Positions 31,034 through 49,910 of a stretch of 64,000 nucleotides of DNA are shown here, piece after piece. Source of the DNA: an uncultured delta proteobacterium (GTDB lineage Bacteria > Myxococcota_A > Polyangia > Palsa-1104); contig CAWAWS010000003.1 in NCBI GenBank assembly GCA_963785725.1, forward strand, positions 448,001-512,000, in the 5' to 3' direction. Position 1 is the first letter of the stretch, and the number at the start of each line of letters is the position of its first letter. The notes beneath the pieces were generated by a model, which ran no database searches, had not been told where the DNA came from, and saw nothing but the letters and a program-made list of their open reading frames with translations. The position numbers and the translations under genes were made by a program.

Positions 31034-31940
31034 GATCGAGACCGGCGAATTTGCCCCATTCCGCCACGGTGCGCGCCGTGCCGAGGCCGTAGCGACCGAG
31101 GCTGGCGACGTCGCCCTTGCCGAACACGATCGTCTGCAAGCGCTCGATCATGCGATCGGTGCGCTCCCTCTGCCAGCGGCCGGTCTTGGTCTCCCAGACC
31201 TTGTGCCGATAGCCGCCCGGATAGTTCGAGTAGTCGAGGTGCCACACTTGGATCTCGTCGGGCAAGAACATGTCCCAGCCGTGGGTGAACGTGCGAATCG
31301 AGAGCGGCCCTTCGTGACCCGCGTTGATCATCGCCGGATCCTCGGGCACCTCGTCGATCCAAGCGCCGTACGTAAAGACGAAGTTGCAACAGGTGAAGGG
31401 CGTCATTTGGTGCGGCTCGGATTTGCGCGCGCGCGACATCTGGATATCGAGCCAACCTTCGGGCCGCACGATCTCGCAGCTGATGAGCGGCACGCCATCT
31501 TCCGGCATCCCCGCCCACGGGAATACGACGTTGCGCGCCTCGTCGAAGGTGAACGGCGGTGAGCTGGTGGTGAGCAGCGGCTTCTTGCTCGGCTTACGCT
31601 CGAGCTGCGCGATCAGGTTTTCGTCCCAGCCCGGCGCGAACGCCGTGTGCGAGTCGATGAGCAGATGATAGCGCTCGCCGTTGTAGAGCTTCTGCACCTC
31701 GGCACGCGCCCATCCGTAGCCGAGGCTCGCTTGGAAGGGATATTTGCGAATGCGAAACTGCGGGTGATGGCGGTAGCGATCGAGCTGCTCGTGCTCATCC
31801 GCTTGCCAGCACAGGCCGAACGTCAAGCGATCGGGATGGGTGGCGCCGGCGAGCGCCGACTCGATGGTGAACGGCAGGTACAAGTCGCGATAGGCGGCAA
31901 TCGAGACGAAGATCTGCCGCTCTTTCGTCGCGTCCATCAC
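31023..31940 (-). CDS. GT60 Skp1-hydroxyproline-type alpha-GlcNAc transferase
   Basis: IFVSIAAYRD, GLCWQ, WAR, LIDSH...WDE, EVPEDP, IRTFTHGWD, WH. Confidence 0.85.
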   Translation of the reverse strand: MMDATKERQIFVSIAAYRDLYLPFTIESALAGATHPDRLTFGLCWQADEHEQLDRYRHHPQFRIRKYPFQASLGYGWARAEVQKLYNGERYHLLIDSHTAFAPGWDENLIAQLERKPSKKPLLTTSSPPFTFDEARNVVFPWAGMPEDGVPLISCEIVRPEGWLDIQMSRARKSEPHQMTPFTCCNFVFTYGAWIDEVPEDPAMINAGHEGPLSIRTFTHGWDMFLPDEIQVWHLDYSNYPGGYRHKVWETKTGRWQRERTDRMIERLQTIVFGKGDVASLGRYGLGTARTVAEWGKFAGLDLSA

Positions 31941-32920
31941 AGCGACCTCGCGAATCGGAGCGCGCCGATGCGCTCCAGGCCTCGAATGACCCGCTCGACG
32001 TCGGTTTGCAGCGTCCCCGTTGGCATCTCGTAACGTGCTTCGAGGGTGTGGCGAATCTCGGCAATGGTGCGCGAGCCGTCACAGATGTGCCAGATCGCCG
32101 CGCCCGAAGCGTTGAGCGAGATCGCGTCCGCGCGCCCGGGAATCTCCAGGAACAGCGAGCCCAAGAGCTGGCCCTCCCGCACGTCCGCTCGTTTGCATGG
32201 TCGGAGAGACGCCAGCTCATCGCCTTCGTCATCGGCTGGCGCGGCACCGTCGGCGGCATCGCGGCTCGTCGCGAGGTCCGCCACCGCGTGAGGGACACGC
32301 GCCTCGGCCGCGGCGATCACATAGGCGACCTCGTCCGCGTCGCCGCGCGCGCCGTCGCAGCGCGCCGTTTCCGCGCGAATGAGGCTCATCAGCTCGAGCC
32401 AGCGCGCGACGATCTTGCGCAGATCGGTCGAGTGGATGAGGACCGGCAGCCGAACCGCCGCCAGCTCGAGCTGGCGATCGACACAGAAACGGTCGAGGAA
32501 CGAAAATGCCGCGCCCAAACCGAACGGGCCCGCGCCCGCCGGACGGTCGAGCCAAGCGCCGGCCTTGGCCTGACCGGGCCGTATCTCATCCGCCATGGCG
32601 GCGCGGAAGTCGAAGGTCGGCTCGACGAGCAGGATGGTGCCCTGCACGTCCTCGGTGAAGAGCCATTCGAGCAGCCCTGCCGCTCTTTGATACGGCGGAT
32701 AGACGTCGTCCGTGTAGGGATGCGGTGACCAGGACATCGTCGTGACGACGCGCGCGTGCGGAGACGACGGCAGCGGCCGCGACGGGTCTTGCGCGACGAG
32801 CCGAACGAGCTCGCCCGGCTGCCGCACCCGATGCCAGGAGCGCGCGAGGCGCCCAACCTGTCCGTCGACGTCGCCGGCGGCGTCGTCATGGGACGACGTG
32901 CAGAAAACGGTGTAAATCAC
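31937..32920 (-). CDS. HPAT/SGT1-like glycosyltransferase domain fused to a C-terminal PqqD/RRE domain (copy A)
   Basis: YTVFC...QPGELVRLV...SPHPYTDDVYPPYQRAAGLLEWL; C-terminal LNASGAAIWHICDGSRTIAEI...DV...L...G. Confidence 0.75.
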   Translation of the reverse strand: MIYTVFCTSSHDDAAGDVDGQVGRLARSWHRVRQPGELVRLVAQDPSRPLPSSPHARVVTTMSWSPHPYTDDVYPPYQRAAGLLEWLFTEDVQGTILLVEPTFDFRAAMADEIRPGQAKAGAWLDRPAGAGPFGLGAAFSFLDRFCVDRQLELAAVRLPVLIHSTDLRKIVARWLELMSLIRAETARCDGARGDADEVAYVIAAAEARVPHAVADLATSRDAADGAAPADDEGDELASLRPCKRADVREGQLLGSLFLEIPGRADAISLNASGAAIWHICDGSRTIAEIRHTLEARYEMPTGTLQTDVERVIRGLERIGALRFARSL

Positions 32921-33945
32921 GCCTTCGCCTCTCCCTCGACGCGGCGCCGTCGTGCCGTCGCGCCGCCCGAAAAGTGGCCCCAGCCGAAGGTCGCGCGCGG
33001 GTCGACCTCGGTGCCGCGATGGAACCACATGGTGACGGCGAAGCGGCTGTCGGCGAACGCGCCCGATGGACAGCGCACCGGCAGCGCTTCGTGCAGCTCG
33101 TCGCTCGGGAACACGACCAGGCGATTGGCCAGCGGCGCGATGGCCGTGAAGGTCTCGGCCGCAGTCCGCGCGCCCGCGGCCTCGACGCGGTCATAGAGAC
33201 GCAGCTCGCCGCCGGCGAATCCGCGCGGCTGGCGATGCAAATAGTAAATACAGGTGAGCAGGCGCGGGATATCCGCAGCCTCGTCGGTGTGCGTCTTGAA
33301 ATAGTAGCCGTCCTTGGCCGCCGTCAGCTGCGACTCGAAGGCGGCGAGCGGGAAGATGGGCGTGCCCAAAATCTTGCCGAGCAGCGGAAGCCAAATCAGC
33401 AGCCGATTCTCGAGCAGCCGACTGTGCACCGACTCTTGGAAGTTCAAGATCGCCTGATTTTGTCGTACGCCGGGCTCGTAGGCGCTCACCGTTCCCGCTT
33501 GGAAGTGCGCTTCGGAGAAGAGCGCATAAGCGAGCAGCTCGTCATGCTCCGGCACGCTCAGGAAATCGTCGACGACGAAGAAGCGCGGACGGCACAGGCG
33601 CAGGGTCGGGCCGCTCTCGACTCCATCGTCGCGCCACCGCTCGTCTCGCGCGTCCATTGCCTGGCTCGGTGGCCGGAGAAGCTCGCCCTTCCTTGCGCCG
33701 CCAGGCCTGGGCGGCTCGAGGACGACGGGCGGATGGCTCTCGATGGAGACGAGGTTGGCCGTCTGAAAAGACCAGGCGACGCGGCCACCCGCGAGCGGAA
33801 GCTGGACGAGCTGGTTCTCGGCGTTGCGATTGGCGAGCGCGCCGAAGAGGACGGCCAGCTCCGGCGCGCCTTCTTGCAGGCTCACTTGGCGCGTGTCGCC
33901 GCCGGCCAAGCGAATCGTGAGCGTGATTTCGCGGGGCGCCGCCAT
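32917..33945 (-). CDS. Fe(II)/2OG oxygenase, prolyl-hydroxylase-like, with extra N-terminal domain (copy A)
   Basis: KTHTD, TCIYY, FAGGELRLYD, LHEALPV, SRFAVT. Confidence 0.85.
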   Translation of the reverse strand: MAAPREITLTIRLAGGDTRQVSLQEGAPELAVLFGALANRNAENQLVQLPLAGGRVAWSFQTANLVSIESHPPVVLEPPRPGGARKGELLRPPSQAMDARDERWRDDGVESGPTLRLCRPRFFVVDDFLSVPEHDELLAYALFSEAHFQAGTVSAYEPGVRQNQAILNFQESVHSRLLENRLLIWLPLLGKILGTPIFPLAAFESQLTAAKDGYYFKTHTDEAADIPRLLTCIYYLHRQPRGFAGGELRLYDRVEAAGARTAAETFTAIAPLANRLVVFPSDELHEALPVRCPSGAFADSRFAVTMWFHRGTEVDPRATFGWGHFSGGATARRRRVEGEAKA

Positions 33946-35942
33946 CACGCCGCGGCCTCCCAACCCGCCTCGCTGAAGCGCGCGACGATTCGCGCCGCTT
34001 CGTCCGGCTGGCTGAAGCGCAGCTGCGCCGCGGGCCGCTGTTCGACGAGCCGGCAGAGGTGGTTGACGGCGCGATCGCGGTCGATGCGAAAGTCGATCGA
34101 GGCGCCGATCAGCGCGGCGACCGCCTCCGCCGGCGACATGGGCGCGATGCGACTGTCGCGCGTATACAGCGGCGTTCTCTTGGCGATCACCAGTCGCTCG
34201 AGCGGAGCGGCAAAGCGGCCGGGCCCGGCTGCGCCTTCGGGCTGCGAGCGCGCGCACAGCGGCACGGCCACCAGGTCGGCCGCGCGGATGGCGATGACGC
34301 TGCGATCGATCAGCCGAAAGCCTTGCGCCTCGATGGCGCGCACCAACGCGTGGGTGGGATCGGCGATCTCACCCGCGATCACGAGGCCGCGCCCGCCTTT
34401 GACGAACGCCGCCGCCGAAAGCCACGTGTAGTTGTGGCGCGCGCGGGCGTAGATGCGGGCGATGTACCGCTTGAGCACGAGCGGCAGCTCCTTCGCGCCG
34501 CAGGCTATCTTCTGATCGCTGCCACGCTGCGCGATGCTGTAGGTCGTGTCGTGGCCGACGTCGAGGTTGGCGATCACGTTGCGCGCCTGCGTGGTCGCGT
34601 CCGCGCCCAGCTGCACGGAGAGCTGCTTGAGCAAGGCGGCGTCTTTGCACCACACGGCCACCTGCAGATCCTCGAAGCCGACATACACGACCGCTTCGTC
34701 TTTGGGCGCGAGCGCGGGCGCGCTCGGGCGCGCACCCAAAGACGCCGGCTTTGCCTCCGCGACCTTGACGAGCGCGCCCGTCTCGAGGACCTCGGGCAAG
34801 AGGAAGCTCTCGGGCCACTCGCGCATCCAGGCCGGGTTGAGCTGCTGGCTGACGCGATTCCACGAATAGGGCCCGGCGAAATCCTCGACCATCTCGCCGC
34901 GCTCGAGCAGGATGCACTCGCTGACGGCGTGGCGGCCGCGCTCGAGCTCCGCCTCCGCGTCCGGCAGCTCGTTCCACAAGTAGCGAAAGGCCTCGGGCTT
35001 GCCGCGATTGCCGCGATAGCGCTGGATCAGCCCGGTGAACGTGCTCGTCATCGTGCCCATGAACTCTTTCGCTTCCGCCGCCACGAGCTGCGACAGATAG
35101 GCGAGGCTCAAGCTGTCGCTGCGCGGCAGCTTGAGCAGCTCGCGGCCGTAGTGATCGAGGATGTGCCAATCGATGAAGTAGTGATGCGGATAGGCCTGCT
35201 TGATCGCCGTGAAGAAGGGATCGTCGCGCTCGTCGGTGAGGATGACCAACGGCTCCCTGCGGCTGAACAGCGGCTCCATCGCCTCGAGGGCTTCGGCCGG
35301 CTTGCGGTCGAGCGTCGTCACGCCGTAGGTGACCTTGAAGTCGCCGCGGCGGAAATGCACCGCGTTGAAGGCGCCGAGGTCGCGCGCCACGCGCTGGGCG
35401 AGCTCGGCGAACGGGCGCTTCGCCTGCATGTTCCGCAAGAGCCGGTACACCGATCGCCGCGTCTCGTGATCGAAATAGAATTGATAGCTGTAATAGCCGA
35501 GATTGGAGCGCTTATTCGCCTGCTCGGACAGCGCCAGCACGGGGATTTGCTCGTGCTCGCCCGTCACCGTCACCCAGTGGCGCCGACTGCGTGCGAAGGC
35601 GCGCGCATCGGACGAGGACACGTCGAGCGTCTTCGGAAAGTAGAGCGCGCAGTCCCACAGCGAGTGCTCGGTGAGCTCGCGGCGCGCCAGCCCAGCGAGG
35701 TCGACGGCGTCCGGCTCGACCCACGCCACCGGCATCTCGATGAGGTCGGTGACCCGGCTCGGAACGGCGTTGTCGACGCGACCGTCATAGCTGACGAGGT
35801 TGGCGGGTGGCGGAATATTGCCGTCGAGCACCAAGAGGCGATTGGTCAGATGCGCCAGGATCACGCCGATTTCGATCGACATGATGCCGTTGGACAGCCC
35901 CGAATTTCCCGACTGATAATTGGTGTACAGGAGATAGCGCAT
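33945..35942 (-). CDS. O-fucosyltransferase-like protein with a C-terminal degenerate HPr-kinase-like domain
   Basis: SGLSNG, AVHFRRGDF, ILTDE, SQLVAAEAKEFMGTMTSTFT; C-terminal AAAFVKGGRGLVIAG. Confidence 0.75.
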   Translation of the reverse strand: MRYLLYTNYQSGNSGLSNGIMSIEIGVILAHLTNRLLVLDGNIPPPANLVSYDGRVDNAVPSRVTDLIEMPVAWVEPDAVDLAGLARRELTEHSLWDCALYFPKTLDVSSSDARAFARSRRHWVTVTGEHEQIPVLALSEQANKRSNLGYYSYQFYFDHETRRSVYRLLRNMQAKRPFAELAQRVARDLGAFNAVHFRRGDFKVTYGVTTLDRKPAEALEAMEPLFSRREPLVILTDERDDPFFTAIKQAYPHHYFIDWHILDHYGRELLKLPRSDSLSLAYLSQLVAAEAKEFMGTMTSTFTGLIQRYRGNRGKPEAFRYLWNELPDAEAELERGRHAVSECILLERGEMVEDFAGPYSWNRVSQQLNPAWMREWPESFLLPEVLETGALVKVAEAKPASLGARPSAPALAPKDEAVVYVGFEDLQVAVWCKDAALLKQLSVQLGADATTQARNVIANLDVGHDTTYSIAQRGSDQKIACGAKELPLVLKRYIARIYARARHNYTWLSAAAFVKGGRGLVIAGEIADPTHALVRAIEAQGFRLIDRSVIAIRAADLVAVPLCARSQPEGAAGPGRFAAPLERLVIAKRTPLYTRDSRIAPMSPAEAVAALIGASIDFRIDRDRAVNHLCRLVEQRPAAQLRFSQPDEAARIVARFSEAGWEAAA

Positions 35943-36590
35943 CTATTCCCTCGTCGCCGTGCCTGCAGCAGTCGCGGGATGGTAGTGAACGAAGATTCCC
36001 GCGTAGAAATCGCCGTCGAGCGGATAGGGGCGACCATGCGCCAGACGCACGCCTTCATAGAGGACGTATTCGCCCGGCTCCATGTCGACTTGGTGCACTC
36101 GACCGTCGAGGCCCTCGATGTGCAGCGGCCAGCGCGACTCGAGCGCGTGATCGATGCAGATCGTCGAGCTGACGAAGTGCGGCTGGCGATCGACATGGTT
36201 GTACAGGAAGGTTCCGCGTTGATAGCAGCGAATGCCGTAACAGGCCGAGAGCTCGAGCAGCCTACCCGCCCACGCTTCGTGCAGCGGCTTGAGCTCGTCG
36301 GCGAGCTGCGCGTTGAACGCGTCCTCTTGGAATAGGAGCGCCGGAATCACGTCTTGGCGAGCGCTGCGAATTTCGTCGGAGGCGCGCTCGGGACGAAACT
36401 GCGCCAGGTTGTCGCGCAACTGCGTCACCAGTCGTGCGTGGATGGCCGGCGCCAGTCGCCCCTTTTGGAAGCCGAGCCCGAGACTGGGCGCCGCGGCCTG
36501 CATCTCTTCGCACTTCTTGCGTAGATACGGCGGCGCCGTCAGCTCCGTCAGCAGCGGCTGCCCCGGCTCGGCTTCGCGCGCGCGACTCAT
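35943..36590 (-). CDS. Fe(II)/2OG oxygenase, prolyl-4-hydroxylase-like
   Basis: YGIRCY, HVDR, WPLHIE, PGEYVLYEG, HGRP, FVHY. Confidence 0.8.
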   Translation of the reverse strand: MSRAREAEPGQPLLTELTAPPYLRKKCEEMQAAAPSLGLGFQKGRLAPAIHARLVTQLRDNLAQFRPERASDEIRSARQDVIPALLFQEDAFNAQLADELKPLHEAWAGRLLELSACYGIRCYQRGTFLYNHVDRQPHFVSSTICIDHALESRWPLHIEGLDGRVHQVDMEPGEYVLYEGVRLAHGRPYPLDGDFYAGIFVHYHPATAAGTATRE

Positions 36591-37915
36591 GCGTGCTCCT
36601 TCTGAAGGCGCCTCCGCGCGGCGAGGCCGAGGTCGAAAAATCGGCGCTCGAGGTCGGTCTTGGCCGAGGCGCGAAAGCTGGCCAGGTTCTCGGCGAGGAA
36701 GTCGCGATCGGCGAACAGCTGCTTGTTCCACGCCGAGCCCAAGAAGGGGCCGCCGCAGCCGTCGTTGACGTCGGCGTAATAGTGGAAGAACGAGCCGGCG
36801 GCGACCGACTCCTGCTGCGGCACCGGTGTCATGAACTGCGGCGCTTGCAAGAGCTCGTAGTCGACACGATTGGCCGTCAGCGCCATGGCAAAGCAGGCCA
36901 TCTCCGCCATCCACACGCGGCTATCGGGAAGGCCGCCGGTCTTGCCGAGCAAGTAGATGATCTGCGCGAAGCGGAAGCAGTCTTTGATGACCTTGTCGTG
37001 CTTCAAGGTCGCGCCGGTCATGAAGACGGTGACGGCGCCGCGTTTGAGCTCGGTTCGACAGCCGAGCGCACCGAGCAGCTGTTGCAGGTCGATGCCGCTG
37101 TCGTCGTCGCCGCGGCTGAGAAAGCGCGGGTCGCGCATGATCGCGTCCGCGGCCAAGGCATTTCCGACCGGGAACACCTCGCGGTTCAGGTCACCGTACA
37201 AGAAGACGTCGCTGTCCATGAGGCAGACGAGATCAGCGGCAGCGACCCGCGGCGCCATCGCGTTGAGGGCCTCGACGCGGTTGAGCGCCACGTAGCCGCC
37301 ATCATGCGACGAGAAGTCGATCTTGTGGCTGTGCGCGTGGTTTCGTCCCGTGAGCACGCCGACCCCGTAGAGCGAGACGAGACGCGTCAGCGCCGGCGAA
37401 AGCGCCGCATGATCGTTGCACACGACGAGCGTGATGTCCCAGCCGGGCGCGAGCTGACCGACGAGCGACTCGAGCAGAATGCCGAGCTGCCAATGAAAAT
37501 ACGGTTTGTCCTCGACTCCGAAGACGAAGCGCACGCGCGGCCGGAGCGCGACTCCCGTTACCGTGTCGTCCGCGAAGGCCACCTCGTCGGCGAGCGCGCG
37601 CTCGGATGAAGGCAGCGCCAAATCGATCATGCCGAGCTGCGCAAAGTGGAACAGCGCCTCGGTGATATCGGCCAGGATGCGAACGTTTCTTCCGTCGTAG
37701 CGCGTGCGCAGCGCGTCGAGCATGTCGAGCGCCGTGTGCGCACCGTCGCAGAGCTGCCAGACCGCGGCCGCCGACTCGTTCAGCGCCAGCGCGACCTCAC
37801 CATCGGGCGACAAGACCACGAGCTCGTTGGCGACGGGAAACAACGAAAAGCCCAGCTTCGCTTGCGGTCGCGCGCTCGAACGGCCGCGAGCACGCGCGCC
37901 CATGTCGTTCATCAA
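36587..37915 (-). CDS. N-terminal PqqD/RRE domain fused to an HPAT/SGT1-like glycosyltransferase
   Basis: LNESAAAVWQLCDG; YFHWQ, YVALNR, MDSD (DxD), WMAEM, FHYY, WNKQ. Confidence 0.8.
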   Translation of the reverse strand: MMNDMGARARGRSSARPQAKLGFSLFPVANELVVLSPDGEVALALNESAAAVWQLCDGAHTALDMLDALRTRYDGRNVRILADITEALFHFAQLGMIDLALPSSERALADEVAFADDTVTGVALRPRVRFVFGVEDKPYFHWQLGILLESLVGQLAPGWDITLVVCNDHAALSPALTRLVSLYGVGVLTGRNHAHSHKIDFSSHDGGYVALNRVEALNAMAPRVAAADLVCLMDSDVFLYGDLNREVFPVGNALAADAIMRDPRFLSRGDDDSGIDLQQLLGALGCRTELKRGAVTVFMTGATLKHDKVIKDCFRFAQIIYLLGKTGGLPDSRVWMAEMACFAMALTANRVDYELLQAPQFMTPVPQQESVAAGSFFHYYADVNDGCGGPFLGSAWNKQLFADRDFLAENLASFRASAKTDLERRFFDLGLAARRRLQKEHA

Positions 37916-37991: not shown

Positions 37992-39005
37992 TTAAAGTAT
38001 CCAGCCGCGCGCCTGCGCCTCTTCGAACGTCACCGCGAGCGCCCAATCGGCCTCCGAGTGAATGGTCACGGGATCGGGATTCTTGCCGGTGAAGACATCG
38101 GGGTGCGCGCGTTTCCGCTGAAAATCGAAGCCGGAGTACAGCTCGTATTGGCGCAGCGTGCGCGCGCGTCCGAGGCTGTAGGGCCCGAGCGTGTGCCCCT
38201 CGTTCGCGTAAACCAGGCGGCGCAGTCGCTCCAGCGCCGTGGCGTTGCGCCGGCGAACGACCTCGTCGCCATGCTCCCAATGACGACGCGGCGGCGCGCC
38301 CCGGTGCAACATGTGCCAAGCCAGCACCTCGGTCGGCAGGAAGAAGTCGTATCCCCAGGTATAGCTGCGAACCGAGACGCTCAGCTCTTCGCCCCAATAA
38401 TAGTGGTCGGGATCCTGCGGCACCTCGACGTTCCATTGACCGCGCGTAAAGACGAAGCCGCCGTTGACGACGCGGGTTCTGCCCGGCTTTTGCTGGTTGG
38501 GCTCGCCGAAGCCGAACCACGGCGCCCAGCCGCCTTGCTCGGACCAGTCGCTGACGCGCGTCGTCGGCACGCCCATGTCCAAGCGGCGCTGCAGCGAGCC
38601 GTCGTCATCGTAGTAAAAGAGCGGCGAATTCATGGTCAGGATCGGCTTTTCGGCCGGGAGCGACTCGAGCATCTGGACCAAGCGCGCATCCCAGCCGGGC
38701 TCGAGCTTCATATGCGAATCGATCTGCAGCGTATAGGGCTCGCCGCGCCACTGCGACTGGGCCAGATTGCGCGCCCACGGTCCGCCTTGGCTCTCTTGGA
38801 CGGTGCGATCGATGAAGCGAAAACGCACATCGCGACGGAACCGCGACAGATCGAGCGGCGCGGCCGGATCGGCCTGCCAGCAGATGCCGAAGCGGAGCGC
38901 GGCCGGATGGCGCGCCATCGCCAGGCAGTCGTCGAGCGTGCGCGGCAGCTCCGGGTCGGCGTAGGCGGCAATGGCGACGAAGATCCGCTGGTCCGTCTTC
39001 ATCAC
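37992..39005 (-). CDS. GT60 Skp1-hydroxyproline-type alpha-GlcNAc transferase (second copy)
   Basis: IFVAIAAYAD, GICWQ, GPWARN, LQIDSH, EVPQDP, GEELSVSVRSYTWGYD. Confidence 0.85.
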   Translation of the reverse strand: MMKTDQRIFVAIAAYADPELPRTLDDCLAMARHPAALRFGICWQADPAAPLDLSRFRRDVRFRFIDRTVQESQGGPWARNLAQSQWRGEPYTLQIDSHMKLEPGWDARLVQMLESLPAEKPILTMNSPLFYYDDDGSLQRRLDMGVPTTRVSDWSEQGGWAPWFGFGEPNQQKPGRTRVVNGGFVFTRGQWNVEVPQDPDHYYWGEELSVSVRSYTWGYDFFLPTEVLAWHMLHRGAPPRRHWEHGDEVVRRRNATALERLRRLVYANEGHTLGPYSLGRARTLRQYELYSGFDFQRKRAHPDVFTGKNPDPVTIHSEADWALAVTFEEAQARGWIL

Positions 39006-39084
39006 GCGCGCTCGAGCTTACACCACCGAGCGGCATGATAGGCTGCAGCGTCTACCGCTCGCCAAGCGACGAGGACGACCTTCG

Positions 39085-41169
39085 ATGATGGACATCGTCG
39101 CGCGCGAGCCCGCGCAGCGCGCCACTTACAAGATCTATTTCCCGCTGTTCGATGACGTCGAGTCACTCAGCAACGAAGTGCGGCTCACCCATCAAGGGCT
39201 GCGCCAGCACCCGCACGTGCAGCTGGTCGACCGGCCGGAGCTGGCGGACTATCTCGTCCTCTGCCAGAACCACCTCGTCGCTCACAATCCGCATCACGCG
39301 CGCTTCGTCGCGATCAAGGACCAATACAAAGACAAGACGATCATGCTCGACTACGGCGACGATCCCCATGAGCTATGGGATCGGCACGACTTCCGCTGGC
39401 GGCTGTACTTCAAGCGCAGCGTGGTCGATCGGCGGCAAGGGCGCGTGCTCGGCTATGCCGGTCTGCCGGTCTGGCCGACGGCGTACGCGGTGGTCGACGA
39501 CATGTGCGAGCCGCCGCTGCCTCTCGACAGAGAACACCGTCACGCGCGCCCGCTCGACCTGTCCTGCCTGTTCGACGATAGCGTCCTCGAGAGTCCGTAT
39601 TTTCGGCTGGCCCGCGGGCGGCTGCTCAAGTTTGCCAAGCGTCTCGTGGCGACGCACGGTCTGAACGCGCAGCTCGGGACCGTCTCCGAATGCGGACCGG
39701 TCGGCCGGTCGGCCATCGATCCCAAATACAAAGAATGCCTGTGGGCCAGCAAGATCGTGTTGCACGCCAACCCGGATCGGTGGGAAGGCGATGCGCGGCT
39801 CTGGGAGGCGCTGGCTGCCGGCGCGCTGGTATTCGTCGAACGGTTGCATGCGCCCATCGCGCACCCGCTCGTCGATGGCGAGCATCTCGTCTTCTACGAT
39901 TTCACCGACGCGGGCATGGCGATCCTCGAGCGGCAGATCCTGCATTACCTGGCGAGCGACACAGAGCGCGAGCGCATCGCGGTGCAAGGAAGGCGGTTCG
40001 TGCTCGCGCATCATCGTTCGATTCACCGGGCCAACGAGATCATCAGTCGACTCGAGCAGCCGAGCGCCACCAAGGTCACGGCGAGCGCCAAGCCCGACAT
40101 CATCGTGGCCATGGCCAGCGGCTGCGCGCGCCTCGGCGACTACCGGACCTTCGTCGCGACCTTGCGCCGCAGCGGCGCCACCTGTCCCGTCTTTCTCGGC
40201 ATCGACGCCGGCTCCGCGTCCGCGCCGATCAAAAAGTACCTGCTCGAGCACGCCGTCAATTACTTCATGGTCGAGCCCATGACGGGTGGCGACCGCTTCG
40301 GCGAATACGCCAAGTGGCTACGCGACGTCGATTTTCGCTACGCGCTGCTGCTCGACTTCGGCGCCACCTACTTTCAACGCGATCCGTTCCTCGACGTCGA
40401 CGGCTACATGGCTGGTTGCGACCTTCTCGTCATGTCGGAGCTGGTCTTGGGGCGCAAGGCGGCGCTGCTGCGATTACTCGACGCGCTCGCCGCGCTCGAC
40501 CCGTCGCAGCGCGTCCAGCCGGACGTGCTGAGTCAGCTCGCACGGACAGGCCATCTCGACCATTGCGGTCGGATCCAGATCGAGCGCGCCGGCCAGAGCC
40601 TCGTCCATCAGCGTGAAGGACGAGTCGAGCCGTTGCGCGATCACGACGGCTGGCTGCTCGATGACGACGGCAACGTCTCCTCCGTCGTGCAGTGCGACAC
40701 GCGACTCCCCGACCTCGCGCCGTTCGTGTCGCGGTTGAGCGATTACGAGCAGCCGGACGAGCTGTTCGTGGCGAGCGGCAGCCGGCCCTATCGCGGGCAG
40801 AAATTCACGCTGTCGTCGCGCGCCGGGCTCAGGCCCGACGCAGTCTCGCGCCTGATCGCGCTGGCCAAGAGCATCTCCGTCGACAAAAAGCCGCTCTTCG
40901 TGCTCGACCGTCGTTTCCGGCGCGGCTTCGTCTTTGCTTACGGCGTGCTGAGCATCGATCTATTGGCGGAACCCGAGCCGCTGCGGCGCCGCTTCTTCCA
41001 CCCTTCGGACGACCGCAAGAAGTGCGCGCAATTCTGCGAGAAGCACGGTTACGCCGTCTTCCGCGTCGACGAGCACGCGCTCTTCGCGAGCGTCGGAGCG
41101 ACCGCGGATCGCGTGCTCACCGCGGACAGCTTTGCCGAAGCGCGCGCGCTCGCCGAGCGTTGGATCTGA
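39085..41169 (+). CDS. Multidomain glycosyltransferase (CgeB/Glyco_trans_1_2-like plus a second GT-like domain)
   Basis: YFKRS; ASKIVLH...RLWEALAAGAL...ERIAVQG; second domain FVATLRRSG...YFQRDPF. Confidence 0.65.
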   Translation: MMDIVAREPAQRATYKIYFPLFDDVESLSNEVRLTHQGLRQHPHVQLVDRPELADYLVLCQNHLVAHNPHHARFVAIKDQYKDKTIMLDYGDDPHELWDRHDFRWRLYFKRSVVDRRQGRVLGYAGLPVWPTAYAVVDDMCEPPLPLDREHRHARPLDLSCLFDDSVLESPYFRLARGRLLKFAKRLVATHGLNAQLGTVSECGPVGRSAIDPKYKECLWASKIVLHANPDRWEGDARLWEALAAGALVFVERLHAPIAHPLVDGEHLVFYDFTDAGMAILERQILHYLASDTERERIAVQGRRFVLAHHRSIHRANEIISRLEQPSATKVTASAKPDIIVAMASGCARLGDYRTFVATLRRSGATCPVFLGIDAGSASAPIKKYLLEHAVNYFMVEPMTGGDRFGEYAKWLRDVDFRYALLLDFGATYFQRDPFLDVDGYMAGCDLLVMSELVLGRKAALLRLLDALAALDPSQRVQPDVLSQLARTGHLDHCGRIQIERAGQSLVHQREGRVEPLRDHDGWLLDDDGNVSSVVQCDTRLPDLAPFVSRLSDYEQPDELFVASGSRPYRGQKFTLSSRAGLRPDAVSRLIALAKSISVDKKPLFVLDRRFRRGFVFAYGVLSIDLLAEPEPLRRRFFHPSDDRKKCAQFCEKHGYAVFRVDEHALFASVGATADRVLTADSFAEARALAERWI

Positions 41170-41182
41170 GTCGCTGCTGGCT

Positions 41183-42154
41183 CTATTGGGACGTCGCTCG
41201 ACGTCTTCGGCCGCGGCGCTCGTTGCGTTCGCTGCCCTCGCTGAACCAGGCCACCGTTTGGGCGAGCCCGCGCTCATACGAGACCGTGGGCTCCCAGCCG
41301 AGCAGTCGGCCCGCGCGGCTGATGTCGGGGCAGCGCTGCCGCGGATCGTCTTGCGGCAGCGGATGAAACTCGAGCCGCACGTCGCTGCCGACGGCGCGGC
41401 GCACGTCTTCGGCGACCGACAAGATGGTGCGTTCGTCCGGGTTGCCGAGATTGACGATGGGAACGACCTCGGCGCTCGACTTGGAAAACTCCATGAGCGC
41501 GCCTAAGCCGGCGACGAGATCATCGACGTAACAGAAGCTGCGCGTCTGGCTGCCGTCGCCATAAATGGTGAGCGGATCGCCGCGCAGCGCCTGCGTGATG
41601 AAGTTCGGGATGAGCCGTCCGTCGCCGCTGGCCATGCGCGGTCCGTAGGTGTTGAAGATGCGCGCGATGCGCACCTCGGTGCCGTATTGCGCGGCCCACG
41701 ACGTGGCCATCGCTTCGCCGCAGCGCTTGCCCTCGTCGTAGCAGCTGCGCACGCCGACGGGATTGACGCGGCCGTGATATTCCTCGCGCTGCGGGCTCAC
41801 GTCGGGATCGCCATAGACCTCACTCGTCGACGCGATGAGGAGGCGAGCACCGACCTCGCGCGCGCATTCGAGCGCGTGCATCGTGCCCATCACCGCCGTC
41901 TTGATGGTGCGAACGGCGTTGCGTTGGTAATGCACGGGCGACGCGGGGCAGGCGAGGTGCCAGATACGGTCGACCTCGAAGTGGAACGGCTCGCAGACGT
42001 CACCGCGAACGAATTCCACCGCGTCGGTGTCGAGGTTCGCACGGCTGCCGGTGAACAAGTTGTCGAAGCAGATGACCTCCTCATGCGCGCGCACCAACGC
42101 GTCGCACAGGTGCGACCCGATGAACCCAGCGCCGCCGAGGACGAGATGCCGCAT
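41183..42154 (-). CDS. uxs: UDP-glucuronate decarboxylase (UDP-xylose synthase)
   Basis: GGAGFIGSHL, HLACPASPVHYQ, ASTSEVYGDP, RSCYDEGKR, RIFNTYGPRM, DDPRQRCPDI. Confidence 0.92.
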   Translation of the reverse strand: MRHLVLGGAGFIGSHLCDALVRAHEEVICFDNLFTGSRANLDTDAVEFVRGDVCEPFHFEVDRIWHLACPASPVHYQRNAVRTIKTAVMGTMHALECAREVGARLLIASTSEVYGDPDVSPQREEYHGRVNPVGVRSCYDEGKRCGEAMATSWAAQYGTEVRIARIFNTYGPRMASGDGRLIPNFITQALRGDPLTIYGDGSQTRSFCYVDDLVAGLGALMEFSKSSAEVVPIVNLGNPDERTILSVAEDVRRAVGSDVRLEFHPLPQDDPRQRCPDISRAGRLLGWEPTVSYERGLAQTVAWFSEGSERNERRGRRRRATSQ

Positions 42155-43272
42155 CAGAGCCGCTCGAACCTGAGCGCGCCGATCTGCTCGAGGCGCCGCA
42201 AGACGGCCTCGGTATCGGGCTGCAGGCTGCCTTGCGGGAGCTCGAAGCGCGATTCGAGCGTTCGGTGGATGTCGGCGATCGTGTGCGTGCCGTCGCAGGC
42301 TTCCCAGATCGCGGCGCCGGAAGAGTCGAGCGCCAACGTGTCCGCGCGGCCGGGAATCTCGAGGAAGATCGAGCCGTAGATCTTGCCCGTGCGCACGCCG
42401 TCGCCGCGCAGCGGCCGCATGAACGTGAGCTCGTGTCGATGCGCGCGCCGTTCGCGCAGCTCGGCCAACAGCGTCAAGAGCTCGCGGCCCGTGCCCGCCT
42501 TTGCCGACAGCGGATCGACCGGATGATCCAAGCTGCCATCGCCGCTCGCATCCCACACGATCGCGCCGCTCGCCGACTCGACGGCGCGCTGGCAGTCGAT
42601 GATCGGCGCCGCGCTCTCGATGGCATGCGTGTCCGTCGCGAGCTCGGCCGCTGCGTGCGGAATGCGCGCCTCGGCGGCGGCGATCAGATAAGCCACGTCG
42701 TCGGCCGCGCGCAGCGGACCGTCTTCGGTGAGCGCGGTCTCGGCGCGAATCAGGCTCATCAGCTCCAGCCAGCGGGCCGCGATCTTGCGCAGATCGCTCG
42801 AGTGGATGATGAGCGGCAGCTTCACCGCGTCCAGCTCGAGCGCGCGATCGACGCAAAACTGGTCGAGGAACCCAAAGTCTCGGCCGAGGTCGAACGGACC
42901 GTCGCCGCGCGGGCGCTCCGGCCACGCCATGGCTTTGGCTTGGCCCGCTCGCGCTTCCTCGGTCACCGCCGCGCGAAAGACGCAGCGCGGCTCGACGAGG
43001 AGGATGGTCCCATCGACTTGCTCGCCGAACAGCCATTCGAGAATCGCGGCCGCTTTGTGGTACGGCGGATAGACGTCGCCCGTGTACGGATGCGGCGACC
43101 ACGCCGTCGTCGCCACGACGCGCGCGTGCCGATGCGTCGGCGCCGGCGGCGCTGGAGGGCGCGCGACCAGGCGCACCAGCTCGCCCGGTTGCCGCACGCG
43201 CGCCCACGAGAGCTCGAGCAGCTCGCACTGCCACTCGGGCTCACCGAAGCTGCAAACGACCGTGTGGATCAC
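42154..43272 (-). CDS. HPAT/SGT1-like glycosyltransferase domain fused to a C-terminal PqqD/RRE domain (copy B)
   Basis: HTVVCS...EWQ...QPGELVRLV...HPYTGDVYPPYHKAAAILEWL; C-terminal AIWEACDGTHTIADI. Confidence 0.78.
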   Translation of the reverse strand: MIHTVVCSFGEPEWQCELLELSWARVRQPGELVRLVARPPAPPAPTHRHARVVATTAWSPHPYTGDVYPPYHKAAAILEWLFGEQVDGTILLVEPRCVFRAAVTEEARAGQAKAMAWPERPRGDGPFDLGRDFGFLDQFCVDRALELDAVKLPLIIHSSDLRKIAARWLELMSLIRAETALTEDGPLRAADDVAYLIAAAEARIPHAAAELATDTHAIESAAPIIDCQRAVESASGAIVWDASGDGSLDHPVDPLSAKAGTGRELLTLLAELRERRAHRHELTFMRPLRGDGVRTGKIYGSIFLEIPGRADTLALDSSGAAIWEACDGTHTIADIHRTLESRFELPQGSLQPDTEAVLRRLEQIGALRFERL

Positions 43273-44255
43273 GAGCCCACGCTGCGCAGCTGCGGCGCGA
43301 CCACGCCGCAAAAGAAGTGGCCCCAGCCGAAGCGTGCCTGCGGATCGACCTTGTCGCTGGCGTGCAGCCAGACGGTGATGGCAAAGCGGCTGTCGGCGAA
43401 TTCGCCCGATGGACAGCGCACGGGCAGCGCTTCGTGGAGCTCATGGCTGGCGAACACGACCAGCCGATTGGCCACCGCCTGCACCGGCACGAACGACTCG
43501 GCGGCCCTGACCTCGGCGCCGCCTTCGACGGAGACGGCGTCGTAGAGCCGCAGCTCGCCGCCGCTGAAACCGCGCGGCTCGCGGTGCAAATAGTAGATAC
43601 AGGTCAGCGCCCGCGGCGTCGTCGGCGATTGGTCGGCGTGCGTCTTGAAATAGTGGCCGTCGCGCGCCGCGGTCAGCTGCGACTCGAGCTGCGCCAGCGG
43701 AAACACCGGCAGCCCCAAGCGCTTGGCGATGAGCGGGAACCAAATGAGCAGCCGATTTTCGAGCAGCCGACTGTGCACCGACGCGCCGAAATCGAGGATG
43801 ACCTGATTCTGCCGCACCTCGGGCGTGTAGGACTCGGTCACGGTGCCAGCCTCGAACTGCGCCTCGGAGGCGAGCGCATAGGCGAGCAGCTCGTCGTGCT
43901 CTTGTGGGCTCAGGAAATCGTCGATGATCACGCAGCGAGGACGACGCACGCTCAGCGACGAAGCGGAACGCGTGGCCTCGGGCTGAGCCGCCGCGTTTGG
44001 CTGCGCTGGGCTCAGCCGTTCGGGAGCGAGCACCACCGGCGGCTCACTCGTCACGGAGACGATCTTCGCCGTTTGAAACGACCAGGCGCGGCGGCCGCCG
44101 TCGAGCGGCAGCTGCAGGAACCGGTTCTCAGCCCACGGCGAGGCGAGCGCGGCGAACAGCGCCAGCAGCTCGGGCGCATCTTCGCGCAGCCGCACTTCAC
44201 GTGCTTCGCCGCTGACCAGGTTGATCGTGAGCGTGATGTCGCGCAGTGTCCCCAT
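43269..44255 (-). CDS. Fe(II)/2OG oxygenase, prolyl-hydroxylase-like (copy B)
   Basis: KTHAD, FSGGELRLYD, LHEALPV, SRFAIT; paralog of 32917-33945. Confidence 0.85.
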   Translation of the reverse strand: MGTLRDITLTINLVSGEAREVRLREDAPELLALFAALASPWAENRFLQLPLDGGRRAWSFQTAKIVSVTSEPPVVLAPERLSPAQPNAAAQPEATRSASSLSVRRPRCVIIDDFLSPQEHDELLAYALASEAQFEAGTVTESYTPEVRQNQVILDFGASVHSRLLENRLLIWFPLIAKRLGLPVFPLAQLESQLTAARDGHYFKTHADQSPTTPRALTCIYYLHREPRGFSGGELRLYDAVSVEGGAEVRAAESFVPVQAVANRLVVFASHELHEALPVRCPSGEFADSRFAITVWLHASDKVDPQARFGWGHFFCGVVAPQLRSVGS

Positions 44256-44351
44256 CAGTCGGTGGCCTTCGTGTCCGCATGGGCGAGGCGCGAACGGAGC
44301 CACGTCCTCTTAACCGTGCGGCGGCAATGAGTCGTGCGCATCCGAACGACG

Positions 44352-44954
44352 TTACGAAGTGGTCGCGCGCAGTCGAACGCGCGCAGTCGCGCGCGCCGCG
44401 CCGAGCGCGATGAAGCCGACCGAGCTCGACCCGCAGTCGGGCGCGCTCGCCATTCCCAACACCGGTGACACCGTTGGCGCCAGGGTCGGCGCGGGGACGC
44501 AGTGGCCGGCCATGGTCGGATGCGCGGTCGGCGCTCGCGTCGGCGGCGCGGTCGGCGCTCGCGTCGGTGGCGCAGTCGGCGCTGGCGTCGGCGGCGCCGC
44601 TGTCGGCGGCGCGGTGGGCGCCCGCGTCGGCGCCAGGGTCGGCAAATTGATCACGGAATGGTCGTCGCCGGCGCCACCGTAGTAAGCCAGCGCCGTGCCG
44701 GGCTTCAAGATCGTGCCCAGCCCCGCCGCCAGCTGCGCCATCGGCAGCGATAGGACCACCGGCGCCACCCACATCTTCTTCAGCGCGTCGCGGCGCGATG
44801 GATCGGCCGCCGGCTCGTCCGGCTTGGCGTCGGCCGCCTGCGCGTGCGCCGGCTCGGACGACTCCGCCGCGTCGTGCTGCTCCAGCTTCCTCTTGAGCTC
44901 CTCGAGCTCGGCGAGCAGCTGCTCTTTGGTCTTCTTGTCGCTACCGTCGCTCAA
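44352..44954 (-). CDS. Putative substrate/precursor: twin-arginine-like leader followed by Pro/Thr (PT) repeats
   Basis: TTG start with GAGGT Shine-Dalgarno; SRRDALKKMWVAPVVLSLP; TALA|YY; 13 PT dipeptides. Confidence 0.8.
   Translation of the reverse strand: MSDGSDKKTKEQLLAELEELKRKLEQHDAAESSEPAHAQAADAKPDEPAADPSRRDALKKMWVAPVVLSLPMAQLAAGLGTILKPGTALAYYGGAGDDHSVINLPTLAPTRAPTAPPTAAPPTPAPTAPPTRAPTAPPTRAPTAHPTMAGHCVPAPTLAPTVSPVLGMASAPDCGSSSVGFIALGAARATARVRLRATTS
44524..44595 (-). repeat. 24-nt tandem repeat, 3 copies, encoding APPT(R/P)APT
   Basis: gcggtcggcgctcgcgtcggcggc repeated with few mismatches. Confidence 0.8.
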
Positions 44955-44972
44955 GAGGTTGTACCTCGGCCA

Positions 44973-45248
44973 TCACGGAGTGATTTCGACGAGCGCGTGC
45001 AAGCTCAGATAGCGCAGAAACGTAACCACATCGCGCTCGAGCACCGAACGATCCGGCGCGACGTAGTCACTTTCCAGCTGCTCGCACAAGGCGGCAATCG
45101 TCGACGCTTGCTCGAGGTGTTGCCAAATGGTCTTACCAGCTTCGTCGAGGCCGACATAGAGGCCGCGCTCGACGCTCATGAGAATGTGCCGGCCTCCGAC
45201 GTCGGCCGAAAGGAAGGGCTTGCGCGCGACTCGCGACGCCAAGCTCAC
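44973..45248 (-). CDS. Stand-alone PqqD/RRE peptide-binding protein
   Basis: ILMSVERGLYVGLDEAGKTIWQHLEQ...LCEQL...LERDVVTFLRYL; directly upstream of the putative substrate. Confidence 0.88.
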   Translation of the reverse strand: MSLASRVARKPFLSADVGGRHILMSVERGLYVGLDEAGKTIWQHLEQASTIAALCEQLESDYVAPDRSVLERDVVTFLRYLSLHALVEITP

Positions 45249-45356
45249 CCCCCCGCTGCCAGCGCCCGACCAGAGCATCCTGCTAGTGAAGGTACGCCAT
45301 GTCCTTGTGGTCAACAAGCGCGAACTGGCCTAGCATCGCGGGCACTGACTCGAATC

Positions 45357-46478
45357 ATGCTGCGTTCGCTCGATGATGTCCTCTCGCCGCTCACCGTCGG
45401 AGAATTCGCGGCGGCGGTCGACGGCAGGAAGCGCTTCCACGTGCAGACGACCGATCCGCGGCGCGCGGAGTCGCTGCTGCCGTGGCCCGAGATCGAGGCG
45501 ATGATCTCGATGCGTCGCTTCGAGAACATGAAGGTGATGCACAACGGCATGGTGGTGCCGCCGCAGCTGTACAACGCGGACGTGAGCGCGCTGCACGACG
45601 TGCTCTTGCAAGGCGCCAGCATCGTCGCCACGCGCGTCGACGCGGATGTGCCGCAGATCCAGTGGCTGGCGACCGCGATCGAACGGCAGCTCGGGCGCGA
45701 GGTCGGCGTCAATGCGTATCTGAGCTTCTCGGAGGGCGGCGCGTTCAAGCCACACTGGGATCGGCACGATGTGCTGGTCTTGCAAGTCCACGGCGCGAAA
45801 ACGTGGAGCATCTGGAACGCGACGCTCGACAATCCCGTCGAGATGTCGCGCTTCGCCAAGCACGACATCACGGACGCGCCCTGTCAGTCGCTCGAGCTGG
45901 CGGCCGGCGACGTCCTTTACATCCCGCGCGGAGAGCCGCACGCCGCGTCGGTGTCGAGCGGCGCCTCGGTGCATCTGACGTTCGGGATCGAGCGCATCAC
46001 CGGCGTCGACGCGTTACAGCGGCTGCAACAGGCGGCCGGCGAAGATGCCTTCTTGCGCGCGGATGTGCCCACCAAAGAGCGGCCCGCGCAGCTGCACGCG
46101 TTCGAAGCCGAGTGGAAGGCGCGCTTGCACCGCCTGGTCGACGCGACTGACCTAGCGCAGGTTTTGCACGACAGCGACCTGCAGCGACCGCCGGTTCGGC
46201 AGGCCTCCTTGTCGACGTTCGCGGAGCCGAGCGATCTCGTACGGCTCACGTTGCGGCGGCGCGTTCCGCTCGATGGCGGCACGGTGACCATTGGCGGCGT
46301 CGCGCACCCGCTCTCGGCCGCGGCCATCGACCTCTTGCGCCGCTTGTTCGAGCGCGACTGGCAGACGCGCGCTGCGCTGACGCAGGCGCTGGCGCCGCGT
46401 CACGAGCCCTCAGCGGTCGAGCGCGCGCTCCGCGAGCTCGCGCGGCTCGGCTTCATCGCCACGCATCGTCCGATATAG
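45357..46478 (+). CDS. JmjC/cupin-4 (RoxA/YcfD-like) 2OG oxygenase
   Basis: NAYLS, PHWDRHDVLVLQVHGAKTW, GDVLYIPRGEPH, C-terminal winged helix. Confidence 0.88.
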   Translation: MLRSLDDVLSPLTVGEFAAAVDGRKRFHVQTTDPRRAESLLPWPEIEAMISMRRFENMKVMHNGMVVPPQLYNADVSALHDVLLQGASIVATRVDADVPQIQWLATAIERQLGREVGVNAYLSFSEGGAFKPHWDRHDVLVLQVHGAKTWSIWNATLDNPVEMSRFAKHDITDAPCQSLELAAGDVLYIPRGEPHAASVSSGASVHLTFGIERITGVDALQRLQQAAGEDAFLRADVPTKERPAQLHAFEAEWKARLHRLVDATDLAQVLHDSDLQRPPVRQASLSTFAEPSDLVRLTLRRRVPLDGGTVTIGGVAHPLSAAAIDLLRRLFERDWQTRAALTQALAPRHEPSAVERALRELARLGFIATHRPI

Positions 46479-47378
46479 CGGCGCGATGCGTTCGGCGACG
46501 AGCTGTCGCTCCGCTTCGGACAGCGGCGCGTGCGCGCGGGCGCGGAACGGCTGCTCGCTCTGCGCCTTGGAGTCGAAGCGCGCTCGCTCGCGCATGCGTT
46601 CGATGGCCGACGGCGCGAAGGTCAGCTGCGCATGGGGCGCGACCTCATCCCAGACGGCATCGGGCAGCCGCGCGTAATCGACCGTGCGCAAGGAAAGCTT
46701 GGCGGCGTGCGCGGCCGAGAACAGCGCTTCGATGGCGTGCAGCCGAAAGCGCGCCGCCGACATCGCCCGCGCCTCGTCGACCGTGAGGCCGAACAGCGCC
46801 AGCGCCGGATCGCCCGTCTCGCGCCAGCTCAGCCATGCCGCCGGCTGTGCGGCGTGCGAGGCCAGCACCCGCAACGGATCGCGCTGCAGCCAGATCATCG
46901 GCGTCGCCGGAAACGCGCGCTGAATCAGGTTCACCGCCAGCACGTTCCAGCTCGTGAGCTTGAGGACGAGGTGGCGTGCGCCGGCGCGGTTGCGGCCGAG
47001 CGCGCGCACGACCAAGCGAAACAGCTCCACCTTATCGTGCTGATCGAGGCGCGCCGCGACGATGTTGTTGACGACGTTGACTTCCGAGAGCACGACATAA
47101 TCGGGCAGCGCCGCCAACATCTGCGCCAGCAAGGTCGACCCGCAGCGCGACACTTGAAAGATGAACAGCGACGGCTCGAGCGTCGGCCGCTCGTCGAGCG
47201 CGCGCAGCACGTCGACTCCGGTCAGCGCCTTGAGCTTGTCATTGGGCAGTCGCGCCAGCGTGTCGCGAAAGAACGGCTCGACGAAGCGCACGTCGCGCAG
47301 ATCGGCCCAGGTGAACAGCGGCTCGGGCAGGAATCGCACCGCGATGGGCGTGCAGTGCGCAGCGTCGTGCACGGTCAC
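46410..47378 (-). CDS. Sulfotransferase-like protein
   Basis: EPFF, FIFQVSRCGSTLL, LSE, KLTSW, RDP..VLASH. Confidence 0.75.
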   Translation of the reverse strand: MTVHDAAHCTPIAVRFLPEPLFTWADLRDVRFVEPFFRDTLARLPNDKLKALTGVDVLRALDERPTLEPSLFIFQVSRCGSTLLAQMLAALPDYVVLSEVNVVNNIVAARLDQHDKVELFRLVVRALGRNRAGARHLVLKLTSWNVLAVNLIQRAFPATPMIWLQRDPLRVLASHAAQPAAWLSWRETGDPALALFGLTVDEARAMSAARFRLHAIEALFSAAHAAKLSLRTVDYARLPDAVWDEVAPHAQLTFAPSAIERMRERARFDSKAQSEQPFRARAHAPLSEAERQLVAERIAPLYRTMRGDEAEPRELAERALDR

Positions 47379-48369: not shown

Positions 48370-48380
48370 GTCTCGTTCGC

Positions 48381-49746: not shown

Positions 49747-49910
49747 GGTCGCGCCCACGATTTCACGAAGACAACGCCCTCGCAAGCCGCGCCTCCGCTG
49801 ACGGCGCCCGCTCGGGCACGACACTTTTGCCGGCGTTGCCGAGTCGGTGTCGCATCGAACCGCTCAAGTCGTCACGGCTGGGGCCGATGGACTAGAAGAG
49901 GGGGCATATC

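Follow-up and report, generated by a model that had tools for sequence, protein, structure and literature searches.

In a stretch of 64,000 nt from an uncultured delta proteobacterium of the Polyangia (the window; assembly GCA_963785725.1, contig CAWAWS010000003.1, positions 448,001 to 512,000) we found a gene cluster built around a 200-aa repeat protein, whose leader combines a twin-arginine signal with a W-x-x-P motif of the kind read by RiPP recognition elements (RREs; RiPP, a peptide made by ribosomes and modified after translation). The precursor and its cluster are real, conserved and apparently undescribed, and they follow what looks like a RiPP-type logic, with a surface glycoprotein as its likely product; no published description of cluster or pathway was found in the literature searched, which lacked most subscription papers. 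The reading we favor, to which we give somewhat better than an even chance, is that RREs guide the cytoplasmic O-glycosylation of hydroxyproline (Hyp), and probably of Thr, in the Pro/Thr-repeat precursor, which is then exported through twin-arginine translocation (Tat). A first-pass annotation of this DNA had proposed a dual-purpose leader read by the adjacent PqqD protein and an extensin/mucin-like product, an interpretation that is partly supported by the genomic comparisons presented here.

The open reading frame (ORF) of the precursor runs from 44954 to 44352 on the minus strand, with a TTG start, a GAGG 9 nt 5' of it and a GC content at third codon positions (GC3) of 0.88. Its TTG lies 18 nt past the stop of the PqqD gene, as the first-pass annotation had it; every motif quoted there was found, on the minus strand, and the count of 13 Pro-Thr (PT) dipeptides in the whole protein was reproduced, while the range 44352..45248 given for the precursor, with no strand, contains it but takes in the PqqD gene too. 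The overlapping ORFs 44197-44772 (minus) and 44359-44682 (plus) were set aside, because both the codon pattern and the position of the conserved motifs favor the precursor frame. One relative's contig covers precursor, PqqD and JmjC genes, with the repeat length altered in frame (61 nt in place of 19). The layout of the precursor is as follows.

44352..44954, minus: precursor, 200 aa, with coiled coil, twin-arginine/WxxP leader, Pro-Thr repeat core and degenerate tail (ORF call, leader profile, alignments)
44874..44933, minus: N-terminal coiled coil, residues 8-27, with which PAS kinases begin as well (it is all that the signalling proteins at 6 of 28 loci have in common with the precursor)
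44790..44795, minus: twin arginine R54-R55, invariant in 21/21 alignment rows (RR in 86 of 91 representatives)
44754..44771, minus: WVAPVV, residues 62-67, predicted RRE site within the hydrophobic region of the signal (W62, P65 and V66 invariant, 21/21)
44685..44693, minus: Ala-Leu-Ala, residues 88-90, predicted signal peptidase site (A88 invariant; AxA/G motif in 21/23)
44658..44684, minus: predicted start of the mature protein, containing Tyr-Tyr and Asp-Asp (the Asp motif accompanies the PqqD/JmjC/sulfotransferase module)
44472..44645, minus: Pro-Thr repeat core with 13 Thr and 13 PT (sequence count)
44355..44471, minus: C-terminal tail, type A, conserved in a Polyangia-like group, without a full transmembrane (TM) helix (alignment)

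A single-sequence search gave 23 matches, 12 of them true relatives on inspection. A leader profile search of GTDB then returned 28 loci, made up of 22 precursors and six PAS/GGDEF signalling proteins that share the coiled coil only; the coiled coil recognized in the first-pass annotation is thus present in the precursor but not specific to it. The same profile also retrieved 100 cluster representatives, 97 after removal of three rows of repeat noise, and 91 of these carry the leader motif: 86 have RR and 5 KR, 89 the W of W-x-x-P, and 66 three PT or more. R54, R55, W62, P65, V66, L68 and P71 are invariant in the 21-row alignment. The first-pass annotation had made its proposal depend on conservation of the motif in homologous clusters, and there both RR and WxxP are nearly invariant. 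Among the recorded hosts are Polyangia, Binatia, Nitrotoga, Halieaceae and Elongatibacter, and the family, for which no curated Pfam or NCBIfam name was found, spans Myxococcota, Binatota and Pseudomonadota; the operon is also present in two strains in culture, Luminiphilus syltensis NOR5-1B (L016) and Elongatibacter sediminis CH-27 (L015). Precursors occur once per genome in 21 of 22 genomes, and no second copy of the leader was found elsewhere in the genome of the window.

Some members depart from this layout. P0209, P0211, P0214, P0216, P0219, P0220, P0222, P0223 and P0236 are short, with coiled coil and RR/LAP leader, a basic helix at the end and no Pro-Thr core. L078/L100 (G068:C184) has two tandem short tail-less precursors by GT60a, the full precursor being on another contig of that genome, and P0168 joins a sulfotransferase and a complete precursor in one reading frame, which may be a read-through artefact.

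The genes around the precursor form a conserved operon. Gene order in the relatives is GT60a, precursor, RRE-glycosyltransferase (RRE-GT), second oxygenase, O-fucosyltransferase/HprK-like protein, prolyl 4-hydroxylase (P4H), HPAT-like-RRE and GT60b. RRE-GT is immediately 3' of the precursor in 19 of the 20 GTDB loci reaching that far and is followed by the second oxygenase in 20/20, while P4H, HPAT-like-RRE and GT60b are present in 18/18 loci of sufficient length. Starting in reverse from RRE-GT, 49 metagenome loci were obtained, of which the 24 with at least 590 nt upstream were counted; the precursor is upstream in 23 of these (6 duplicate GTDB loci), and the sole exception, L077, also lacks the RRE. 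A conserved leader, a variable core and RRE-bearing enzymes encoded alongside are thus found together, as in RRE-dependent RiPPs, and the precursor ORF is likely the operon's dedicated substrate. A search of 60 relatives and of viral contigs gave no RRE-GT, so the cluster is a patchy accessory one. In the window the gene order is rearranged and the P4H/HPAT-like-RRE pair is duplicated together; four of the six PqqD matches above cut-off in this genome belong to the cluster. No promoter- or terminator-like site was found at 44150-45500, and no island edge was seen by GC content. The enzymes and neighbors encoded in the window are listed below.

36587..37915, minus: RRE-GT, an N-terminal RRE with a GT-A glycosyltransferase domain with intact DxD, directly following the precursor in most relatives (alignment, fold search)
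42154..43272, minus: HPAT-like domain (no DxD) with C-terminal RRE, copy a (first ESM atlas match HPAT, 0.96)
31937..32920, minus: HPAT-like-RRE fusion, copy b (domain scan)
43269..44255, minus: P4H-like oxygenase copy a, with an unnamed domain of 80 aa at its N-terminus (best PDB match 6t8m_A, E 7e-9, which we take to be the Dictyostelium Skp1 hydroxylase PhyA, then EGLN1)
32917..33945, minus: P4H-like oxygenase copy b (domain scan, HxD..H..R)
35943..36587 (start approximate), minus: second 2-oxoglutarate (2OG)-Fe(II) oxygenase (no Pfam match; fold closest to P. putida P4H)
37992..39005, minus: GT60-type GlcNAc transferase a (Pfam PF11397; 19/22 loci)
31023..31940, minus: GT60-type GlcNAc transferase b (Pfam PF11397; 18/22 loci)
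33945..35942, minus: O-fucosyltransferase-like domain and HprK-like domain without the Walker A Lys (domain scans)
41183..42154, minus: NAD-dependent nucleotide-sugar epimerase/decarboxylase (PF01370, PF16363), presumably UDP-xylose synthase-like by its motifs
38971..41169, plus: multi-domain glycosyltransferase (Pfam PF13524)
30110..31033, plus: nucleotide-sugar epimerase (domain scans)
29321..30052, plus: unnamed protein, homologs of which lie next to related clusters (two of them with weak Fringe-like matches)

WVAPVV matches the lasso-type RRE leader consensus, [Y/W]xxPx[L/V/I/A/F/Y] (PMC13381572; PMC12710340; here and below, statements on published work refer to the accessible portions of the papers). 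The conserved RRE contacts are one Asn, facing the Pro, and one Asp, facing the aromatic residue (N33/D70 of LppB; PMC13381572). To locate these positions we used alignments to 9x90_B and TbiB1, 9x90_B being taken to follow PbaB1 numbering by matching residues. The Asn is kept in 19/20 RRE-GT and 33/34 HPAT-like-RRE proteins, the Asp in 19/20 and 27/34, respectively. An exported glycoprotein whose WxxP owes its conservation to export or to the membrane, with the RREs binding something else or just joining enzymes, would explain why the motif sits in the hydrophobic region and why the fused RREs miss the pocket Phe of lasso RREs, and it would agree with bufferins, whose signal peptide is dispensable for modification (PMC11626156). 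We consider this very unlikely: [WY]xxPx[LVIAFY] appears in just 2 of the 77 other Tat-like N-termini of this genome (a crude scan, 78 including the precursor), the Asn/Asp contact positions are conserved, and the clusters showed no further precursor-like gene. At L041:16902-18716 lies an RRE fusion of a third kind, in which the RRE stands between two further glycosyltransferase-like domains.

The motif also occurs without the arginines. Four DUF4422-like enzyme ORFs, all of one family, bear WxxPV without RR, three of them also with the coiled coil (L103:4769-6643, minus; P0232, P0237 and P0239); 15 other homologs begin at the catalytic domain. This is as expected if WxxP is a docking tag separable from export, and these copies could be fusion relics.

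Which RRE reads the leader is the point where our results depart from the first-pass annotation, which had assigned this role to the stand-alone PqqD. This protein belongs to a small module:

44973..45248, minus: stand-alone PqqD/RRE of lasso-B1 type (PF05402, E 2.5e-14; best PDB matches 9x90_B, E 3e-9, and TbiB1)
45357..46478, plus: JmjC hydroxylase (NO66/YcfD-like), which travels with stand-alone PqqD (domain scan, locus comparison)
46410..47378, minus: sulfotransferase PF13469 of the same module (domain scan, locus comparison)

PqqD as main reader of WVAPVV, delivering the precursor to all enzymes, would suit the most lasso-B1-like RRE of the cluster, with its pocket Phe kept and its gene 18 nt upstream. 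We nevertheless regard it as highly improbable, since, of the 37 non-duplicate loci reaching 400 nt or more upstream, just 7 have a stand-alone PqqD beside the precursor and WxxP is equally conserved in the other 30; the RREs fused to glycosyltransferases are, on these counts, more likely to be the family-wide readers. Moreover, PqqD travels with JmjC (in 6 of the fetched stretches of PqqD loci) and the sulfotransferase (in 5; L031, the duplicate of L001, has it as well), and with D-D or D-G-D just past the predicted cleavage site, found in 7/7 loci with stand-alone PqqD and 0/30 without, a pattern that was picked after viewing the sequences and in which four of the seven loci are close kin. 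L004, the nearest relative of the window on the RRE-GT tree (100/100), has neither PqqD module nor Asp motif. Core sequence thus appears tied to enzyme content, and stand-alone PqqD looks like a lineage add-on, probably binding the same leader motif for its own module only. Tyrosine sulfation of the Tyr-Tyr start was set aside, Tyr being there in 2/7 module-bearing precursors and the Asp motif in all.

As regards export, 21/23 sequences have S/T-RR, all continue with 13-30 uncharged residues, and 21/23 then show an AxA/G motif, the order of elements of a Tat signal. A TatC gene was found in the window's genome and in 21/22 others, which is weak evidence because TatC is near-universal. That the leader is a docking or scaffolding tag only, on a protein that primes or organizes a sulfated/fucosylated polysaccharide and does not leave by Tat, would fit the weak Tat motif and long n-region, the leader-bearing enzymes, the many variable glycosyltransferases and sulfotransferases close by, and the roughly nine family members with leader but no PT core. 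It seems to us quite unlikely, given that RR is kept in 86/91 precursors and lost in 4/4 enzyme-borne copies, that AxA follows in 21/23, and that C-terminal tails of sorting type match the machinery of the host.

These tails differ by lineage, types A, B and C being swapped between lineages (the tail of L009 is cut and was typed by its relative L039, that of L023 by its duplicate L076). Type C (PVEL) coincides with a full C25 peptidase in 9/9 genomes versus 0/13 others, and type B (VP-TM) with an exosortase-family match in 6/7 genomes versus 2/6 for type A and 3/9 for type C, counts that overstate independence because the genome groups are kin. Type B shows the layout of PEP-CTERM proteins, that is, motif, hydrophobic stretch and basic cluster (PMC1569441). 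The type-A tail of the window sits within type-B lineages in the enzyme tree and reads as a degenerate form of an anchor intact in relatives, therefore its product may be released or loosely held; "weak C-terminal anchor", as it had first been annotated, is accurate. The window protein does not show the PEP-CTERM arrangement of motif, hydrophobic helix of ~14 residues and basic cluster, and IPTL-CTERM matches are weak and limited to 2/21 relatives. A MYXO-CTERM tail was also rejected, as the tail Cys is not conserved in the alignment. P0178, P0226, L035 and L072 display a fourth tail element of IF-x-DGFE type, alone or ahead of a TM tail. PVEL-x-x-F tails and C25 (gingipain-family) genes are on the same contig, within ~15 kb, in seven cases, usually by a small stand-alone Ig-like gene (L012:17413-19805; L011, L016, L018, L020, L104-L106; most genomes related), possibly an undescribed sortase-like system outside Bacteroidota.

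The chemistry is suggested by the domain content. In the P4H-like proteins the HxD..H iron triad and the 2OG Arg are invariant and the nearest solved relatives are prolyl hydroxylases; the model of the second oxygenase has a pLDDT of 89. The unnamed N-terminal domain of the former (~75 aa; 44027-44255 and 33715-33945, minus) is also found on methyltransferase/sulfotransferase proteins of five related loci (L011:16651, L016:17158, L019:17509, L020:12628 and L041:18586; E 3e-9 to 2e-4), a possible second adaptor domain. DxD is the metal motif of GT-A enzymes. A GT-A fold was recognized for RRE-GT, D-[TS]-D and WxxEM being present in 20/20, and its second match in the ESM atlas is a cluster with 16% PF23452 (HPAT). 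At least 125 proteins belong to the HPAT-like-RRE family; 25 of the 34 aligned match PF23452 at E<=0.1 (best 6.6e-8), and they have no conserved DxD, that column varying freely. A PF23452 profile search of the window's genome gave no match, but controls were likewise silent. No PDB match was obtained for GT60a/b, and the HprK-like domain is doubtful as an active kinase because the Walker A Lys is missing in 7/7 copies inspected.

A competing reading of the chemistry, which we hold to be fairly unlikely, is a purely mucin-type route, in which RRE-tethered enzymes and the GT60s glycosylate Thr of the Pro-Thr repeats and the prolines either remain as they are or receive a hydroxyl group but no sugar. 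Pro precedes 204 of 311 core Thr family-wide, with 67 expected, the clearly HPAT-like protein is the one without DxD, and GT60 contains mucin-type polypeptide GlcNAc transferases, directed to Thr/Ser, as well as Hyp-directed ones (PMC8724618, PMC3188802). Against it, a P4H-like gene comes right before HPAT-like-RRE in 18/18 loci, this pair is co-duplicated in the window, and a second oxygenase follows RRE-GT in every one of the 20 loci.

From leader conservation, operon linkage and domain content we infer the following course for the favored, Hyp-directed pathway. The RREs of the GT-A enzyme and of the HPAT-like protein would bind WVAPVV in the cytoplasm, where the two P4H-like oxygenases would turn repeat prolines into Hyp; RRE-GT, with its DxD intact, and the GT60s would add the first sugars to Hyp and probably to Thr too, the DxD-less HPAT-like protein acting as adaptor, and variable glycosyltransferases, sulfotransferases and methyltransferases would extend the glycans. 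In the window lineage only, stand-alone PqqD, JmjC and sulfotransferase would modify the Asp-containing mature N-terminus. Tat would then export the product, with cleavage after Ala90 and sorting by the host-specific tail, to give an extensin/mucin-like glycoprotein.

Several observations weigh against this pathway. The Tat consensus has a Phe two residues past RR and a short n-region; this Phe is present in 0/23 sequences and the distance from the start to RR is 35-55 residues, while TatC is found in 11/14 controls and no exosortase was found in the window's genome (88% complete). As for the enzymes, the second oxygenase matches P4H modestly (TM-score 0.57), with other 2OG enzymes nearly as close, and both HPAT-like copies of the window fall short of the PF23452 threshold. 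RRE-GT has GT6 enzymes and WbbM as best folds (Foldseek E 1e-7), its domain matches PF23452 in 0/20 at E<=1, and its alignment with the HPAT-like domain is weak (hhalign E 0.057). In the fused RREs Ala, Val or Thr replaces the pocket-dividing Phe. The dual targets of GT60, the Sec-type signal that bufferins can do without, and the manner in which the Asp pattern was picked count in the same direction, and the co-occurrence counts are drawn from related genomes.

A broader version, to which we give a little less than an even chance, would hold for at least three phyla: a RiPP-style line for a plant-extensin-like surface glycoprotein, in which RREs would read a WxxP tag inside a Tat signal, prolyl hydroxylases and HPAT/GT60-related enzymes would build Hyp-linked glycans in the cytoplasm, helper enzymes would join via a leader without arginines, and the product would be passed to the sortase-like system of the host.

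Variable neighbors of the clusters include GT77 (in 3 loci), GT47-like, GT11, NodZ-like, sulfo- and methyltransferase and UDP-galactopyranose mutase genes. A small Cys-cluster gene (CxxCxxCC-like, no Pfam match) is immediately upstream of the precursor at L009:4874-5812, L014:9152-9910, L039:8253-9083 and L002:9431-9919. In the window, a 2220-aa Cys-rich protein with TNFR-like repeats and a GC-motif/TM/RRR tail adjoins the cluster (22403-29065, plus), and L003 seems to have a similar neighbor; an Asp/Asn beta-hydroxylase-like gene and two further sulfotransferases flank it at 47791-49824.

If the favored pathway is right, it would represent bacterial Hyp-linked protein glycosylation, found described just in plants, algae and protists in the literature searched, as well as an instance in which a Tat signal peptide is read by an RRE. 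Its enzymes would be soluble cytoplasmic relatives of HPAT/SGT1 from plants and of the Skp1 enzymes from protists, and its leader could serve as a portable tag for steering glycosylation. It would also supply a concrete candidate substrate for the RRE-glycosyltransferase fusions, which have so far been listed without one.

Among known systems, serine-rich repeat adhesins have a dedicated cluster that O-glycosylates a repeat surface protein in the cytoplasm, with a long signal peptide, accessory Sec, a pair of catalytic and non-catalytic glycosyltransferases and a C-terminal anchor. The likeness is one of outcome, since here the repeats are Pro-Thr rather than Ser and RREs and hydroxylases take part; no SecA2/SecY2 or GtfA/B was seen in these clusters. 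With the PEP-CTERM/IPTL-CTERM substrates of exosortases (PMC1569441) the type-B relatives share the tail layout and a Thr-rich body, unlike the window protein, which lacks a full TM stretch and in whose genome no exosortase was found.

RRE-dependent RiPPs with [Y/W]xxP leaders (lasso peptides, paeninodin, LPP, PQQ; PMC13381572, PMC12710340) are similar in the W-x-x-P-x-hydrophobic leader, the PqqD-family RREs, the HprK-like domain in the cluster and the precursor beside its enzymes; they differ in that the leader studied here overlaps a twin-arginine signal, on a repeat protein of 120-330 aa with a sorting tail, and that its enzymes are of P4H, GT-A and GT60 type. A lasso peptide as such was rejected, the core being >100 aa and no cyclase or B2 leader peptidase match to Pfam/NCBIfam being present among 24 window and 61 neighbor proteins (49 of the latter picked from 97 unassigned ORFs as nearest to the clusters). 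The fusions reported by RRE-Finder (PMC7470986; PF00535 fusions in PMC12710340) likewise join an RRE to a glycosyltransferase, but in the accessible parts of these papers they are listed without substrate, whereas here the glycosyltransferases are HPAT-like or of an unnamed GT-A family and come with a matched precursor. The nearest exported RiPPs are bufferins (PMC11626156), which share cytoplasmic modification, export by a general pathway and an RRE-like partner, although theirs is Sec, with Cys heterocycles and a dispensable signal peptide, and Tat is predicted here; the accessible part of PMC12452194 leaves Tat unmentioned.

Two eukaryotic pathways come close in chemistry. The protist Skp1 pathway (PMC8724618) also pairs a cytoplasmic P4H with a GT60-family GlcNAc transferase, while our predicted target is an exported repeat protein, with RRE guidance and a bacterial operon. 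The plant extensin pathway, with P4H, HPAT (GT95)/SGT1 (GT96), GT77 and GT47 (PMC8012813), operates in the Golgi on Ser-Pro4, in contrast to the predicted cytoplasmic action on x-Pro-Thr here, where moreover the HPAT-like copy is without DxD; what both have in common is a Pro-rich repeat substrate, a PF23452-like domain and, in some clusters, GT77/GT47-like genes.

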